64,000 nucleotides of DNA from a candidate division CPR3 bacterium GWF2_35_18 (GTDB taxonomy: Bacteria; Patescibacteriota; CPR3; GWF2-35-18), in contig MESW01000007.1 of assembly GCA_001771135.1 (NCBI GenBank), positions 3,563-67,562 of the forward strand, in the 5' to 3' direction. Shown here in pieces: positions 10,619 to 60,419 of the stretch (the first letter of the stretch is position 1; each line of letters starts with the position of its first letter). The position numbers and the translations under genes were made by a program. The notes below the pieces were generated by a model. It was not told where the DNA came from and did no database searches. It saw only the letters and a program-made list of their open reading frames with translations.

Positions 10619-11325
10619 AAAATATCATGACATATATTTATATACTAAGTTATAGATCTATATATATTGATATATTAAAATAATATATTTACTATTCTCT
10701 AATGTTCTTGCAGTTTTATTTTCAAATAGTGTATAATAACTGGGTACATTGTAAAAATATTCTACTTCTAAAAGATAGAAATAGTAGAAAGAAGTCATTT
10801 TTTTAAAGCGATCCAGAGAATTGTGTGAGTCTGGTAAAAATGTTCTTTCGAACGAGTCTATTTTAAGTAGTTGATTGAAAAAATTCATTCCCTGGATGGA
10901 AAGTAAATCAGACGGTTGATTCCCGTAAAGAAGAATCTAATATTGAGAGTCCTCTGAAGGTTGAGAGTAGGAGGAAATCAGGGTGGTAACACGGGTAGTT
11001 TTTTATAAAGAAAACCCTCGTCCCTTGATAAATGCGTTATTTGCATTTGTCGGGAGACGAGGGTTTTTTGCGTTTAGAGAGTTAAATATAACAAAAGAGA
11101 GCATGGAATCGAAGCATCAGTTGTCTTTCGACTGCCAAATATGGCTCTTTATGCTTGTCCATGCTCTAGATAAAGTTAGCATATAACGAAAAATATTGTC
11201 AAGAGAAAAACATAATACGTTGTTGAACGGTGAAATCGCTGAAAATTTTTAGCAATTTAATCGTTAAATAACAGGCAGTAGCCTGAATAAAAATCGCACA
11301 TTCGAATAAAAAAAGGAGACAGACT

Positions 11326-11844
11326 ATGGATATCCAAATCATCCACCCAACTTTGGCGGATATTTCCGAAATCAACGCCTTAATTTTAGGGCATGGTAAT
11401 GGAGGATTACTTCCCGTTAATGACGCTGAATTTCAGCGACGTGTCGAATCGGGAGATTCCCTTATTCTCAAAATTGATGGAGTAATTGTGAGCTACATTG
11501 CGCTTACTCCTGTTAACAATCATGCTGTTGAGGTTCGTTCACTAGTCACTGAACGAGAGCTTCGGCGTCATGGCTATGGAACCGTTTTGATCACTGAAAT
11601 CTTGAAATTGGCGCAAATAAATTATCCTGATCGTATCGTGGTCGCCATGGTTTCGGGAAAATCAGAAGGAATTTTCCGGAACCATAATTTCATTGATCCT
11701 ACACCAAAAGAGTTAGGATTATTGGATGAGTTGTTAGTTTTATGTTGGACGACTTGTCCAAATTTTTCTAAACTACCTCTGGGTAAGATTTGTTGCCACA
11801 CTTTTTTGGTCTGGCATAACGGAAAAGAGGAAAGAAAGGAATAA
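11326..11844 (+). CDS. GNAT-family N-acetyltransferase (possible horizontally acquired)
   Basis: RRHGYGTVLI matches GNAT motif A (R/Q-x-x-G-x-G/A); strong SD AAGGAGA 7 nt upstream; local GC visibly higher than the surrounding sequence. Confidence 0.55.
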   Translation: MDIQIIHPTLADISEINALILGHGNGGLLPVNDAEFQRRVESGDSLILKIDGVIVSYIALTPVNNHAVEVRSLVTERELRRHGYGTVLITEILKLAQINYPDRIVVAMVSGKSEGIFRNHNFIDPTPKELGLLDELLVLCWTTCPNFSKLPLGKICCHTFLVWHNGKEERKE

Positions 11845-12022: not shown

Positions 12023-13408
12023 ATGCATAATAAATTTGAGAAGCAACAAGTAAATAAATTATGGGGTGAGGCTTTTAATAAAAAGCCAAAAGAAAAAGCG
12101 ATACTGTTTGCGGCAGGACGTGATGTAAGAGGTCTACCGCCTGCAGATGAACAGTTAATTCCTTATGAAATTGAGGCAAGTATCGCCTGGGTTAAGGGTT
12201 TATCTGATCAGAAAATTATTGATAAAAAGACCTTAGAAAAAATTATTGAAGGATTAAAAGAAATTAATACTTTATATGTAAAAGGGGAATTTTATCTTGA
12301 TCCTCAAAAAGAAGATGTCCACTCGAATATAGAATCATATCTTGTAAAAAAGTATGGAATTGATATAGGAGGAAGAATTCACAGCGGAAGATCAAGAAGT
12401 GAACAAGGTATTGTCGATATTATTTTGTATCTGAAAGATAAAAACCTATTTTTTAAACAAGAATTAAAGGATTTAATCGATACTCTAAATGCTTTATCTG
12501 AAAAATATCAGTATGTGATTCTTCCTGCTTATACTCACCATCAGCATGCGACAGTAATGACCTTCGGTAATATGTTAGATTGCTACACACAAACCTTCAA
12601 AAAAGATTTACAAAGGTTTAATAGTTGGAATGAGATTGAAGAAATATCTCCTCTTGGTAGTACCGCTGCTTATGGAACGACCTTCCCGGTAGATAAAAAA
12701 AAGATTAACCAATATCTAGAATTACAGAAAGAATTTACCAATGAGATCGAAGCGATTACCTTTAAGGGTGACGCAGAGGCAATGATGGTCTTCAATCTTT
12801 CGATGTTCATGAACCATCTTTCTTCTCTAGCTCAAACTTTGATCATTTTTTCGACAAAAGAGTTTGGTTTTATTCAGCTCAGTGATGAATATACAACCGG
12901 AAGTTCTATTATGCCACAAAAAAAGAATCCAGATTCGCTTGAAGTTATGAAAGCAAAAGCAGCGATGTGTCAGGGATATTTGATGAGCTTGCTGAGTATG
13001 AAAGACTCTGTTTTTATCGGATATAACAGGGATTTACAATGGGTTAAATATGTGGTTATGGATGCTATCAGTGAAGTAGAAGAAGCTCCAGAAATTATTA
13101 AAGGGGTCTTGCTTACTATGAAAATAGACTCCAAGAAAATGAAAGAGGTTGCATTTAAAGGTTTTATATTGGCTCAGGCAATCATGGAAGGACTTTCTAT
13201 CGACTACGCAATTCCAATGAGGTTAGCCAAAATGATTGTTTCAAATGCGGTGAAGAATAGTAGTGAAGCGGATGGAATTAAATTGAAGACATTAAATAAA
13301 TCGATAAATGAATATGGATTCTTGATCAAGGTGAATAAAATAAAATTTTCAGAATGGATTGATCCATACTCAGTAGCTAGTAAACAGATGAAAAAGGAGG
13401 GATTATGA
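12023..13408 (+). CDS. argH: Argininosuccinate lyase (divergent)
   Basis: LWGEAF (cf. LWGGRF), IHSGRSRSEQ (HTGRSRNDQ), PAYTHHQHATV, fumarate-lyase signature GSSIMPQKKNPD. Confidence 0.85.
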   Translation: MHNKFEKQQVNKLWGEAFNKKPKEKAILFAAGRDVRGLPPADEQLIPYEIEASIAWVKGLSDQKIIDKKTLEKIIEGLKEINTLYVKGEFYLDPQKEDVHSNIESYLVKKYGIDIGGRIHSGRSRSEQGIVDIILYLKDKNLFFKQELKDLIDTLNALSEKYQYVILPAYTHHQHATVMTFGNMLDCYTQTFKKDLQRFNSWNEIEEISPLGSTAAYGTTFPVDKKKINQYLELQKEFTNEIEAITFKGDAEAMMVFNLSMFMNHLSSLAQTLIIFSTKEFGFIQLSDEYTTGSSIMPQKKNPDSLEVMKAKAAMCQGYLMSLLSMKDSVFIGYNRDLQWVKYVVMDAISEVEEAPEIIKGVLLTMKIDSKKMKEVAFKGFILAQAIMEGLSIDYAIPMRLAKMIVSNAVKNSSEADGIKLKTLNKSINEYGFLIKVNKIKFSEWIDPYSVASKQMKKEGL

Positions 13409-13476: not shown

Positions 13477-14724
13477 ATGAATAAAAATTATATTAAAGCT
13501 TCTTCATATGAGGCGAAAATAGGTCAAGTAAAAAAAGTCGTCCTTCTATATTCTGGAGGATTGGATACTAGTGTGATGTTGAAATGGATTCAAGATAACT
13601 ATAAAGCTAAAGTTATTGCTCTGACGATGGATTTAGGTCAGCAAGGTGATGATTTAGAATTCATTAAGAAAAAAGCCTTAAATCTTGGCGCTGAAAAAAT
13701 CTATGTAATTAATGTGAAAGACGAGTTTGCGAATGAATACATATCAAAACTTATCAAAGCAAATGGGGCTTATCAGGGAAACTATTATATTTCCACCATA
13801 TCGAGGTACTTAATGGCTAAATGGGCGATTAAGATTGCCAAACAAGAAAATGCCGATGCGATTGCACATGGGTGTACGGGTAAAGGTAATGATCAGGTAA
13901 GAATTGAAGCCTCAGCTTTAACCTTAAATCCCGATATTAAGATCATTGCTCCAGTTAGAGAGTGGTCGATGGGAAGAGATGAAGAGATAGAATATGCAGC
14001 AAAAAACGGAATTCCCGTTCCAGTAAAAAAGGACTTTCCTTACTCTGTAGATGATAATATGTGGGGAATGACTTGGGAATCAGGAGAAATCGAGGATCCA
14101 TCATTGATTCCTCCGATCGAAAAGTTTTTGAATACCCATACATTACCTGAAAATGCTCCAGATAAAGCAGAATTTATCAAGATTAAGTTTTCGAAAGGAA
14201 TTCCAGTTTCTATAAATGAAAAAGAGATGAAATTGTCGGATCTTATTATTAAGCTTAATAAAATTGCCGGAAAACATGGAGTAGGGATTGTCCATCATAT
14301 TGAGGATAGATTGGTTGGTTTGAAGGTAAGAGGTGTCTATGAAATGCCAGCAGCTCACGTTATTATGACAGCTCATAAGAATTTGGAAAAATACGTAAAC
14401 ACCATGACCGAAAACGAATTAAAAAATGTTATGGATATAAAATGGTCTTATCTGGTTTACGGTTCTAAATGGTATGAGCCTGTTTTAGAAGCTATCAATG
14501 CTTTTAATGATAAGATCAATGAAAAGGTTGAAGGGGAAGTAACAATTAAGCTATATAAAGGATCAGCTGAAGTTGTTGCCATAACTTCACCGTATGCTCT
14601 TTATGATCATAACTTAGCTACATTTATGAAAGATTATACTTTCAATCAGAATGCGAGTCCTGGTTTCGTAGAGATTTTCAGTCTACAGATGAAATTAGCA
14701 AACCAAGTAAAGAGTAAAAATTAA
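13477..14724 (+). CDS. argG: Argininosuccinate synthase
   Basis: PP-loop VVLLYSGGLDTSVML; 415 aa typical length. Confidence 0.9.
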   Translation: MNKNYIKASSYEAKIGQVKKVVLLYSGGLDTSVMLKWIQDNYKAKVIALTMDLGQQGDDLEFIKKKALNLGAEKIYVINVKDEFANEYISKLIKANGAYQGNYYISTISRYLMAKWAIKIAKQENADAIAHGCTGKGNDQVRIEASALTLNPDIKIIAPVREWSMGRDEEIEYAAKNGIPVPVKKDFPYSVDDNMWGMTWESGEIEDPSLIPPIEKFLNTHTLPENAPDKAEFIKIKFSKGIPVSINEKEMKLSDLIIKLNKIAGKHGVGIVHHIEDRLVGLKVRGVYEMPAAHVIMTAHKNLEKYVNTMTENELKNVMDIKWSYLVYGSKWYEPVLEAINAFNDKINEKVEGEVTIKLYKGSAEVVAITSPYALYDHNLATFMKDYTFNQNASPGFVEIFSLQMKLANQVKSKN

Positions 14725-18195: not shown

Positions 18196-18272
18196 GCCGT
18201 TGTAGCTCAACTGGATAGAGCAGTTCCGTCCTAAGGAAAAGATTGCAGGTTCAAATCCTGCCAGCGGCACCA
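18196..18272 (+). tRNA. tRNA-Arg (anticodon CCT), CCA encoded
   Basis: Acceptor GCCGTTG/CAGCGGC, D-arm GCTC..GAGC, anticodon loop GTCCTAA, T-arm GCAGG TTCAAAT CCTGC, 3' ACCA. Confidence 0.8.
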
Positions 18273-18287
18273 ATATTTACAAATTAA

Positions 18288-18359
18288 CGGAGCGTAGTTC
18301 ATCGGTAGAACGCACGGTTCGGGACCGTGAAGTAGCAGGTTCAATTCCTGTCGCTCCGA
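18288..18359 (+). tRNA. tRNA-Pro (anticodon CGG), no CCA
   Basis: Acceptor CGGAGCG/CGCTCCG, anticodon arm CACGG TTCGGGA CCGTG, T-arm GCAGG TTCAATT CCTGT. Confidence 0.8.
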
Positions 18360-34929: not shown

Positions 34930-35079
34930 TTTATTTTATCTTTCTACAAAAAAAACGCTCATACCGAAAGCGTTTTTGTAAAGTTAAATATAATATTAAA
35001 TATTCTTTACTTGTGTCACCTCGGTAGGAAATTAAGAGTATTGAGACTCAATACTCACCTACTGTCATTAGCATAATGT

Positions 35080-35108
35080 AATATATTCGATTTTAATATT
35101 TCTGTCAA
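35080..35108 (-). promoter_or_regulatory. Sigma70-type promoter for rplJ-rplL (TTGACA, 17 nt, TATATT on minus strand), followed by structured L10 leader
   Basis: Reverse complement reads TTGACAgaaatattaaaatcgaaTATATT; leader contains hairpins incl. AAAAACGCTTTCGGTATGAGCGTTTTTTT attenuator-like element. Confidence 0.6.
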
Positions 35109-57940: not shown

Positions 57941-58420
57941 GTGGATCGAAATCAAAATCTTCCTAAAATTTTACAACTTGATAATTTAAATAAGTTGCGA
58001 CAAAAATTCCCCAAGAAAAAAATTATTTTAATTTCTGGTTGCTTTGATATTCTTCATATTGGACATATTGGCTTCATTGAAGCAGCAAAAAAGCAGGCAG
58101 ACATTTTAGTTATAGGGATATTATCTGACAAATTTGTCAAAAAAAGGAAAGGCCAAAGTCGTCCAATATTTACGGAGATGGAAAGATTAAAGTTGATTGT
58201 TAGCTTAGAGATTGTTGATTATGCTTTTATCATGGATACTAATGATGTAGATACGGTACTACAGGAATTAAGTCCCAATTTTTATGGTATTGGAGGAGAT
58301 AGAGATAAAAATAATTTTGCCGAAAAGAGATGGCTCAATAAATATAATGTTAAAGTTAAATTTCTTCCTCGTTTTGGTGAAGAATCAACAACGACAATTT
58401 TAAAAAGGGTCTTACGGTAA
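57941..58420 (+). CDS. Cytidylyltransferase-like nucleotidyltransferase (HldE/RfaE domain II or TagD-like), GTG start
   Basis: ILISGCFDILHIGHIGFIEAAKKQADILVIGILSD (GxFDxxHxGH nucleotidyltransferase motif). Confidence 0.6.
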   Translation: MDRNQNLPKILQLDNLNKLRQKFPKKKIILISGCFDILHIGHIGFIEAAKKQADILVIGILSDKFVKKRKGQSRPIFTEMERLKLIVSLEIVDYAFIMDTNDVDTVLQELSPNFYGIGGDRDKNNFAEKRWLNKYNVKVKFLPRFGEESTTTILKRVLR

Positions 58421-58439
58421 ACACTTGCACAAAATATTT

Positions 58440-58660
58440 TTGAGGAGTATAAAGAAAAGGATAAAGGTAATTAGATCAAACAATCTTTTTGAGTGATTCT
58501 GGAAAAGTGTAAACCAGGAAAAGATTATGATTCGACCCAACCTTTTGACGAAAGAATGATATTTTATAAGAGTTAAAACCAAGGTGGTACCGCGGTAATA
58601 TTTTCCGCCCTTGGGAGTTCAATATTATCAATATTGGAATTCCTGGAGGCGGTTTTTTAG
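58440..58660 (+). promoter_or_regulatory. T-box riboswitch leader upstream of proS (T-box sequence plus terminator/antiterminator)
   Basis: AAGGTGGTACCGCGG at 58581..58595 matches the conserved T-box GGUGGUACCGCG; followed by terminator CCGCCCTTGGGAG ... CTCCAGGAGGCGG TTTTTT ending 58658; candidate CCN specifier (AAACCAGG / CGACCCAAC) in upstream stem region. Confidence 0.7.
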
Positions 58661-58715
58661 TTTAAGAATATAAAAGAGCAAAATATTTACTCTAAATACT
58701 AAAGGAGGTTTATAT

Positions 58716-60419
58716 ATGAAGTATAAAACATTATTTGGAAAAACGGTTAAGAATATTTCTTCAGAGATAAAAACCGTTTCCCATAAATTATTAATCAAAT
58801 CTGGGTTTATCCGAGAAAGTACAGCCGGAAGATACTTCAATCTTCCCTTAGGTATGAAGGTTCATAATAAAGTTATTGATGTTATTAGAGAACAAATGAA
58901 TCAAGCTGAAGCTCAAGAGATGATTACTCCGGTTCTTCATCCTATTGAACTTTGGAAGGAAACGAATAGAACGGTATCAGTGGGTTTTGAACTCACTACT
59001 TTGAAGGATCGCCGCGGAACGGAGTTTGTTTTAGGAGGTACAGCTGAAGAGATGTTTGTAGAAGTTGTAAAACAGTTTAATCTTTCATATAGAGATCTTC
59101 CTTTTAATCTTTATCAGTTTTCTTCTAAGTTTCGTGATGAATTACGAGTTCGTGGTGGTTTGTTGCGAGCGCGAGAATTTACCATGAAAGATGCCTATTC
59201 CTTTGATCGTGATGAAAAAGAGTTCAAAAAGACCTATGAAAAAATGAAGGAAACTTATACCAAAATATTTAGACTTTTAGGTCTAGAAACGGTAATTGTA
59301 GAAGCAGATAATGGATATATCGGTGGGGAATATTGTCATGAATTTCAGGTTTTGTCGGATACAGGAGAAGATCTTCTTTTTTACGTTAAGAGTCTTAATA
59401 AATATTTTAATAGAGAGATTGCTCCTAGTCAGGCTCAAAAAGTGGCATCTAAGGATGAAATAATAAAAGAGAAAAAGGATGTTTTAGGGGAAAAAATTAT
59501 TGGAGTTGAAGATTTGGCTAAATATTTAAATATTCCGGTTGAAAAAACAACAAAAACATTGTTATTTGAAGGTAGCGATAACAGGTTAATTGCCGCTGCC
59601 GTAAGAGGTGGATATGATATTGACGAAACAAAGTTAAGACGTATTGCCAAAACTTCATTCCTAAAATTAGCAAGTGCAGATACGATTAAAGAACTTACCG
59701 GGGCTGAGGTTGGTTTCTTGGGTCCTCTAAATCTTCCTAAAAAGGTTGAGGTTTTTTACGATGAATCTACAGATAGCAGGATGAATTTTGAATGTGGAGC
59801 TAATAAGACAGATTACCATACTATTAACGTGAATTGGGATCGAGATCTTCCAAAACCCACAAAATTTTATGATATTAAAGTAACAAAAGAAGGGGACATC
59901 TATCCCGAAACTGGTGAGAAATATGAAGTTTTTCGAGGGATAGAAGTTGGTAATATTTTCCAATTGGGATACCATTATAGTAAATTGATGAATGCGACTT
60001 TTAGAGATGAAGACGGCACAGAAAAATTATATTACATGGGATGTTATGGAATTGGAATCGGAAGAGCTATTGCGACTATAGTTGAAAAACATCATGATGA
60101 CAAAGGAATTATTTGGCCTGAAAACAGTGCTCCATTTAAAGTAGAATTGGTATTACTCAATACTGAAGACGAGAATGTTACGAAAGTTGCTGATAATCTA
60201 TATCAAAAGCTTAGAGATTCGAATGTGGAAGTTTTGTTTGATGATCGTGCGGATGTTTCCGCGGGAGAAAAACTCAAGGATGCAGATCTTTTAGGAATTC
60301 CTTACCGAGTAGTTGTGAGTAAAAAGACAGTAGCCGAAAATAAAGTTGAATATAAAAAAAGAGATGAAGATAAAGCTATACTTATTTCGGAGGCGGAATT
60401 TATCAAAAAGATATCCTAA
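58716..60419 (+). CDS. proS: Prolyl-tRNA synthetase (bacterial-type, 567 aa)
   Basis: Class II motifs; ProRS-specific YFNLPLGMKVHNKV, ITPVLHPIELWKETNR, C-terminal anticodon-binding domain. Confidence 0.9.
   Translation: MKYKTLFGKTVKNISSEIKTVSHKLLIKSGFIRESTAGRYFNLPLGMKVHNKVIDVIREQMNQAEAQEMITPVLHPIELWKETNRTVSVGFELTTLKDRRGTEFVLGGTAEEMFVEVVKQFNLSYRDLPFNLYQFSSKFRDELRVRGGLLRAREFTMKDAYSFDRDEKEFKKTYEKMKETYTKIFRLLGLETVIVEADNGYIGGEYCHEFQVLSDTGEDLLFYVKSLNKYFNREIAPSQAQKVASKDEIIKEKKDVLGEKIIGVEDLAKYLNIPVEKTTKTLLFEGSDNRLIAAAVRGGYDIDETKLRRIAKTSFLKLASADTIKELTGAEVGFLGPLNLPKKVEVFYDESTDSRMNFECGANKTDYHTINVNWDRDLPKPTKFYDIKVTKEGDIYPETGEKYEVFRGIEVGNIFQLGYHYSKLMNATFRDEDGTEKLYYMGCYGIGIGRAIATIVEKHHDDKGIIWPENSAPFKVELVLLNTEDENVTKVADNLYQKLRDSNVEVLFDDRADVSAGEKLKDADLLGIPYRVVVSKKTVAENKVEYKKRDEDKAILISEAEFIKKIS

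Follow-up and report, generated by a model that had tools for sequence, protein, structure and literature searches.

The leader preceding the prolyl-tRNA synthetase gene proS of candidate division CPR3 bacterium GWF2_35_18 is best explained as a transcription-attenuating T-box riboswitch that is specific for tRNA-Pro and controls proS in a reduced architecture, and we put the probability of this reading at about 0.85. It lies in the window, by which we mean the whole stretch of 64,000 nucleotides analysed here. By its core features the leader is a member of the T-box family; it fails the Rfam gathering score and lacks Stem II, the IIA/B pseudoknot and Stem III. A preliminary description, made from the sequence alone, had proposed a T-box in front of a prolyl-tRNA synthetase, and the identity of the gene is borne out. 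The reading frame at 58716-60419 (+) encodes a bacterial-type prolyl-tRNA synthetase (ProRS) of 567 amino acids with an editing domain, matching the profiles NCBIfam NF006625 (625.9 bits) and TIGR00409 (542.8 bits) and the Pfam domains tRNA-synt_2b, tRNA_edit and HGTP_anticodon. The Firmicutes, to which the T-box had been taken as a clue, are not the source of this DNA, which comes from the candidate division CPR3 (Patescibacteria). The ProRS shows 100% identity to the protein of candidate division CPR3 bacterium GWF2_35_18, the identical protein with the same leader is found on 23 groundwater contigs, including GCA_001772225.1 and GCA_001771165.1, and the nearest ProRS in species-representative genomes is from Patescibacteria at no more than 58% identity.

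The T-box sequence GGTGGTACCGCGG is read at 58583-58595 (+), which is where it had been placed previously; the length of 14 nt given for it does not stand, as it has 13 nt as written. It occurs as a single exact copy in the whole window, and allowing up to two mismatches there are three window matches against 0.07 expected by chance, one of the two others, at 10982, being the T-box core of a second such leader. The slightly longer AAGGUGGUACCGCGG spans 58581-95. Rfam alignment, folding and a check of the sequence agree on an antiterminator at 58579..58614 (+), in which the 6-bp helix A1 (CCAAGG/CCUUGG, 58579-84/58609-14) and the 4-bp helix A2 (GCGG/CCGC, 58592-95/58605-08, with a loop of 9 nt) are separated by the 7-nt T-box bulge UGGUACC (58585-91). 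The A2 pair adjoining the bulge is G-C and not the usual G-U. The antiterminator has a folding energy of -11.4 kcal/mol and is the minimum free energy (MFE) fold of the leader once the 3′ arm of the terminator is omitted (to 58615).

The intrinsic terminator at 58605..58658 (+), identified by folding, inverted-repeat search and sequence check, consists of an imperfect hairpin of 48 nt (58605-58652; 21 pairs, -22.8 kcal/mol) and a U6 tract (TTTTTT, 58653-58658) directly 3′ of it. When the fold is extended to 58665 so that the full leader is included, the MFE structure is the terminator hairpin, which replaces the antiterminator. The first ten nucleotides of the terminator (58605-58614) are the 3′ strand of the antiterminator, and since both structures use them they are mutually exclusive, confirming the earlier claim of a strong terminator whose 5′ arm can alternatively form the antiterminator. 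A simple consensus terminator scan did not call the hairpin at 58605-58652 because its stem is long and imperfect; its core is detected by the inverted-repeat search. One of the groundwater contigs with identical ProRS (L161) carries a C-to-A change at the equivalent of 58605, a position that is both the top pair of helix A2 and the first base of the terminator.

The Rfam T-box model RF00230 matches 58449-58615 (167 nt) with 48.9 bits, at an E value of 7e-10 in a local search and of 1.1e-7 when the whole window is searched against all 4227 families. The proposed RF00230 scan thus yields a match at the level of 1e-7, but one that falls below the gathering score of 93 in the Rfam copy used, and a window-wide Rfam scan with default gathering thresholds does not list a T-box leader at 58449-58615. 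The preliminary description was to be abandoned upon a sub-threshold Rfam score together with a Stem I that could not be folded around a Pro codon; only the first of these was found. The low score is explained by the empty positions of Stem II, IIA/B and Stem III, about 55-60 model positions in all; over Stem I, T-box core and antiterminator the alignment is good. It might be argued that the hairpin does no more than terminate the upstream tsf-frr-rseP-cytidylyltransferase operon and that the GGTGGTACC motif is coincidental, as the hairpin is located downstream of a same-strand gene ending at 58420. The E value of 1e-7 for a structured match of 167 nt, the low chance expectation for the motif and the conservation of the whole leader in relatives make such a coincidence barely conceivable, and it was rejected on these grounds.

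Stem I extends over 58463..58545 (+) according to the RF00230 alignment, RNAfold of the segment and RNAalifold with relatives. It is built from a lower helix AAAGG/CCUUU (58463-67/58541-45), further helices at 58474-78/58528-32 and 58482-88/58520-26, an AG-bulge region UUGAGUGA (58489-96) and a distal helix (58497-502/58514-19) closed by the 11-nt distal loop AAAAGUGUAAA (58503-13). AG bulge and distal loop motifs of T-boxes form a platform for the tRNA elbow. In the leader, AGUGA (58489-96) and AGUGUAA (58503-13) align to AGAGA and GGUGaaA of RF00230, an assessment of the distal platform at the level of sequence and secondary structure only.

The specifier loop has UAAUUA on its 5′ side and CGACCCAA (58533-40) on its 3′ side. 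The latter contains the Pro codon CCC (58536-58538) followed by the conserved purine A58539 (58536..58539, +; RNAfold of Stem I and sequence check), so that the candidate CCN specifier suggested earlier is found on the 3′ side of an internal loop in a foldable Stem I. The shifted register CCA (58537-39) is likewise a Pro codon. Among the Pro codons in the 39 long open reading frames of the window, CCC is used least (12%; window GC 33%), and its retention in the leader in spite of this indicates that the conservation of this codon does not stem from base composition. The specifier loop has imperfect S-turn motifs, with UAAUUA and CGA in place of AGUA and GAA, which counts against the main reading.

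Specificity for another amino acid would follow if an overlapping triplet of GACCCAACC were read, for instance ACC (Thr) or CAA (Gln). In the RF00230 alignment the codon columns do lie over CAA, and specifier loops differ in length; the requirement for a codon with a 3′ purine beside the lower helix, however, gives CCC-A in the related leader L166, where a single A precedes that helix, and GAA-CCU-A and GAA-CCU-G in L167 and L170, and CCN alone is common to the five long-Stem-I leaders compared. With a ProRS gene downstream and a bulge UGGU that fits A73 of tRNA-Pro, we consider a non-Pro register very unlikely and rejected it on the conserved CCN and the identity of the regulated gene.

The only tRNA-Pro in the window, tRNA-Pro(CGG) at 18288..18359 (+; ARAGORN, Rfam and sequence), has a C1-G72 pair and the discriminator A73. 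Its gene does not encode CCA, and the bulge UGGU complements the ACCA end made up of A73 and the CCA that must be added, in keeping with the match between acceptor end and bulge that had been put forward as a check. The anticodon of this tRNA mismatches the specifier CCC at the wobble position, which is a further point against the main reading. Judging from its sequence, tRNA-Pro(CGG) is probably not the main effector, and this mismatch makes a GGG (or UGG) isoacceptor encoded outside the window the likely one. The adjacent tRNA genes at 18196-18359 (+) differ in their 3′ ends, in that tRNA-Arg(CCT) encodes CCA and tRNA-Pro(CGG) does not.

A putative sigma-70-like promoter, read from the sequence at 58425..58453 (+), has the elements TTGCAC and TATAAA with a spacer of 17 nt. 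It was missed by a consensus promoter scan, as the -35 element matches in only three of six positions. In the relatives L165 and L166, TTGACA-17/18-TATAGT and TTGACA-17-TATAAC, respectively, are found at the promoter position. From this element we infer that the transcript begins near 58460, directly at the Stem I base, and a start at that position would exclude a K-turn. A search for this motif showed GA dinucleotides on both sides of the lower helix (GGAU... / ...UGAC) but neither a C-stem nor canonical outer model pairs, and no convincing K-turn was recognised at the base of Stem I. Measured from the Stem I base, the antiterminator ends after about 152 nt.

The Shine-Dalgarno sequence of proS, AAAGGAGG at 58701..58708 (+; sequence read), is found 43 nt past the U-tract and in neither of the alternative helices, which argues for control at the level of transcription. 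The literature describes T-boxes outside the Firmicutes as often translational, and one may therefore consider control like that of the actinobacterial class II, in which a downstream helix would sequester the ribosome-binding site. The position of U6 directly 3′ of the alternative hairpin and the distance of the Shine-Dalgarno sequence from both helices speak against this, and translational control was rejected on these positions as a highly improbable mechanism. Just 5′ of the Shine-Dalgarno sequence there is a small A-U hairpin, UAUUUA-CUC-UAAAUA (58685-58699, +), the pairing of which is kept in L165 (UAUUUA/UAAGUA).

The arrangement had been described as canonical, and in this respect the description has to be revised since the leader is without Stem II, IIA/B and the Stem III hairpin. 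The 27+13 positions that RF00230 assigns to Stem II and the IIA/B pseudoknot correspond to 3+1 nt, and in their place Rfam alignment and folding show a single-stranded A/U-rich linker (58546..58567, +). The MFE of the linker is -0.4 kcal/mol in the window and -0.3 to -0.7 across the window, L165 and L166, and RNAalifold of these three sequences found no conserved helix in it. The linker is followed by the discriminator purine string AAGAG-UU-AAAA (58568..58578, +; Rfam alignment and literature motif), in which the two flanks of Stem III, AAGAG (58568-72) and AAAA (58575-78), are parted by UU alone and lead directly into A1. The 15 Stem III positions of RF00230 are represented by 0 nt in the window leader, and by Rfam alignment L165 and L166, both with AAGAG-UC-AAAA, each have 2 nt for 17 Stem III positions. 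The Stem III hairpin is absent from all three leaders and the flanks are contiguous as AAGAG-UY-AAAA, with AAGAGU.AAAA invariant. Together these three sequences constitute the Stem III-less clade as sampled here.

According to published work the aminoacylation sensor consists of 5′-RRRxG-Stem III-AA-3′ and the antiterminator (PMC7583486, PMC11404447). The Stem III hairpin is called universal in the literature, and an antiterminator without Stem III is reported not to bind tRNA appreciably. Within the otherwise diverged linker of the window, L165 and L166, the triplet GAC (58547-49) is kept and is complementary to GUU at 58572-74 (GUC in L165 and L166), allowing a long-range pairing of at most 3 bp that encloses the AAGA purines. 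One may speculate from these three sequences that the GAC/GUY pairing might be a minimal substitute for Stem III, of different topology. With regard to Stem II, the all-G-C duplex GGC:GCC of the glyQS T-boxes needs no lateral support from the Stem II S-turn (PMC7583486, PMC11404447). A CCC:GGG duplex would be equally strong, which fits the loss of Stem II in the window, L165 and L166, but the related leader L170 is also without Stem II and yet has the specifier CCU, so that the argument from an all-G-C duplex is not general.

Related proS genes carry comparable leaders. The leaders of L165 (ProRS 84% identical to that of the window, specifier GAA-CCC-A, RF00230 score 52.4 bits), L166 (72%, CCC-A, 43.2 bits), L167 (68%, GAA-CCU-A, 66.7 bits) and L170/L171 (63%, GAA-CCU-G, 57.6 bits) were compared with that of the window. 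L165, L166, L167 and L170 all keep the long Stem I, a Pro specifier in the same place, UGGUACC and a terminator with U-tract, and Stem I of each of these relatives folds separately into the same architecture. The terminators of L165 and L166 are long hairpins followed by U7. Stem I and the antiterminator both emerge from the RNAalifold consensus computed for the window, L165 and L166, and five pairs are maintained by two-sided changes among these three sequences. Two of the five are in A1, where CCAAGG/CCUUGG is changed to UUGAGG/CCUCAG in L166. Covariation from so few sequences is supportive and not statistically strong. A normal Stem III is kept in L170 and L167 between AAAAG or AAGAG and AA, and L167 in addition has extra hairpins at the position of Stem II, so that the series L167, L170 and window looks like a stepwise reduction. 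Two lineage-specific insertions were also seen, a hairpin in the distal loop of Stem I in L166 (~1160-1215) and, in L167 (~1345-1440), about 90 nt that extend the helix A2 loop.

A MAFFT alignment of the five long-Stem-I leaders misaligned Stem I of L167 and L170, and these two were consequently compared by separate folding and by their Rfam alignments. A covariance model (R1) built from the window, L165 and L166 did not recover the proS leaders of L167 and L170 at E<0.01 and was too narrow to give a larger structural alignment. A pattern scan for AAGAGTNAAAA...GGTGGTACCGCGG in viral contigs found nothing. A T-box was present in about 18 of the 132 proS loci having enough upstream sequence. 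The loci L001, L002, L140, L141, L168, L169, L172, L174 and L175 have proS without a leader, and in the loci of the closer ProRS relatives P0005, P0006, P0007, P0008, P0009 and P0011 the upstream sequence is short or free of a T-box.

Such leaderless genes bear on the possibility that the leader is a decayed T-box that no longer tells charged from uncharged tRNA and acts as a constitutive partial terminator or is inactive. That so many related CPR proS genes do without a leader implies that the regulation is dispensable in the group, and both the low Rfam score and the published statement that an antiterminator without Stem III does not bind tRNA appreciably would agree with decay. The pattern of conservation, in contrast, speaks against decay. 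The bulge, A2, AAGAGU.AAAA and CCC have remained invariant in three lineages with ProRS proteins 72-84% identical, and meanwhile the linker, loops and helices have changed, in part by compensatory substitutions. Decay in a genome of 33% GC is moreover not expected to spare G+C-rich motifs. We accordingly regard decay as improbable, though as the least improbable of the alternatives weighed here, and favour a functional tRNA-Pro-responsive leader.

From the elements described, tRNA binding, the acting isoacceptor and the regulatory outcome can be proposed for this functional leader. Transcription would probably begin at the promoter just 3′ of the upstream gene, and the nascent RNA would fold the long Stem I. 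The specifier CCC would then pair with the anticodon of a tRNA-Pro, most likely the GGG isoacceptor, and the platform of AG bulge and distal loop would stack on the tRNA elbow. In the case of an uncharged tRNA, its 3′-ACCA end may pair with UGGU of the bulge and stabilise the antiterminator, the weaker of the two structures, giving readthrough into proS. In the case of a charged tRNA, the 3′ strand of the antiterminator would be captured by the stronger terminator and transcription would stop.

Among known T-boxes, the leader is most usefully compared to those of the glyQS type (Bacillus subtilis, Geobacillus kaustophilus and Oceanobacillus iheyensis glyQ). It shares with them a long Stem I that carries a specifier loop, an AG bulge and a distal loop, the absence of Stem II and of the IIA/B pseudoknot, the single-stranded linker, and the competition between a terminator and a canonical antiterminator whose 7-nt bulge is UGGNACC. 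If a GGG isoacceptor exists, the codon-anticodon duplex would also be all G-C, CCC:GGG here as compared to GGC:GCC. Unlike the glyQS leaders, where GGC specifies Gly and the genes are glyQS or glyS, the specifier is CCC for Pro and the gene is proS. Most glyQS leaders have a K-turn and they always have Stem III, whereas the Stem III flanks are contiguous here. A G-C pair replaces G-U in A2, the terminator with its 21 pairs is unusually long, and the host is a CPR bacterium. The proS leader is thus alike in its working but is not a member of the glyQS subclass.

The core sequence and the logic are those of the canonical class I T-box (tyrS type, RF00230; Firmicute proS/proBA), from which the leader differs by being without Stem II, IIA/B and Stem III and by its 48.9 bits against the gathering score of 93. 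In Firmicutes, the combination of a Pro specifier with a proline-related gene downstream is reportedly known, described by Vitreschak et al. in 2008. With the class II or ultrashort-Stem-I T-boxes (actinobacterial ileS) it has in common that it is a reduced T-box outside the Firmicutes. It differs from these in its full-length Stem I, internal specifier loop, distal platform and lack of a Stem II S-turn domain, and where the ileS type places a sequestrator over the Shine-Dalgarno sequence, the window leader has a terminator.

Considered as an annotation only, a T-box that precedes an aminoacyl-tRNA synthetase gene is nothing unusual. T-boxes serve as a model for how RNA recognises RNA and have been proposed as antibiotic targets. 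The T-box family is well known; the form without Stem III and the CPR host appear to be undescribed in the searchable literature, in which a limited search found no paper linking T-boxes with CPR phyla or describing T-boxes without Stem III. On balance, and somewhat tentatively, the sequences lead us to favour the view that the CPR3 leader, like its two closest relatives, is a functional T-box without Stem III, Stem II/IIA-B and K-turn, that L069 is an independent case, and that CPR T-boxes are widespread and under-detected. If this is true, the Stem III helix would not be required in nature and only the flanking purines would be, perhaps helped by the 3-bp GAC/GUY pairing. A conserved leader that has the flanks and lacks the helix offers a direct test of the contribution of Stem III, and its length of about 152 nt also makes it a compact engineering scaffold. 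The CPR T-boxes scored with Rfam, including a complete second one in the window, were all below the gathering score (43-67 bits in the relatives and 83.9 bits in the second window T-box against 93), so that standard annotation would miss them.

This second T-box leader (10768-11069, +; RF00230 83.9 bits, local E value 8.5e-19) has in its part at 10768-11028 a Stem II with an insertion, a IIA/B pseudoknot with CCGUAA and a Stem III between GAGAG and AA. Its bulge is UGGUAAC, its terminator lies near 11045-11069, and the specifier loop, read as GAA-CGA-G, probably specifies Arg. The first open reading frame lies about 250 nt past the terminator. Downstream are genes for a GNAT acetyltransferase (11326-11844), a Lyase_1 protein (12023-13408) that is probably argininosuccinate lyase, and argininosuccinate synthase (13477-14724). 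As these include genes of arginine biosynthesis, the genome has another T-box leader with an operon matching the amino acid, a point in favour of the T-box reading of the proS leader.

About two dozen true T-box cores were seen in the fetched loci, and there is a hairpin just 5′ of A1 in all except the window clade, L069 and a second element of L170. In L069 (~2030-2300), an unrelated patescibacterial proS operon, the Stem III hairpin is absent and AAAAGUG-AAAAAUA leads straight into A1; its sibling L013 retains Stem III. The second T-box of L170 (4471-4670) is very reduced, without a Stem III hairpin and with the bulge UGGC; its specifier is maybe GAC-A or CAU-A, and the downstream gene is cut by the end of the locus.

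Other patescibacterial proS loci have the Pro specifier in the 7-nt terminal loop of a short hairpin, e.g. CAUUGG-CUCCUAA-CCAAUG, which in L008, L010, L014, L025 and L065 resembles the ileS type. The short-hairpin type is found just 5′ of proS in L008, L010, L014, L025, L065 and L088, and with a small open reading frame between T-box and proS in L013, L016, L020, L021, L069, L134 and L158. The specifiers are CCU, CCC or CCG, followed in most by a purine, and a terminator with U-tract follows. With these leaders included, proS orthologues of the CPR have either of two T-box architectures upstream or lack a T-box. The RNA matches in the window that pass the Rfam gathering score are the tRNAs and a ribosomal protein L10 leader only, the latter (RF00557) at 34940-35089 (-) with 50.8 bits.
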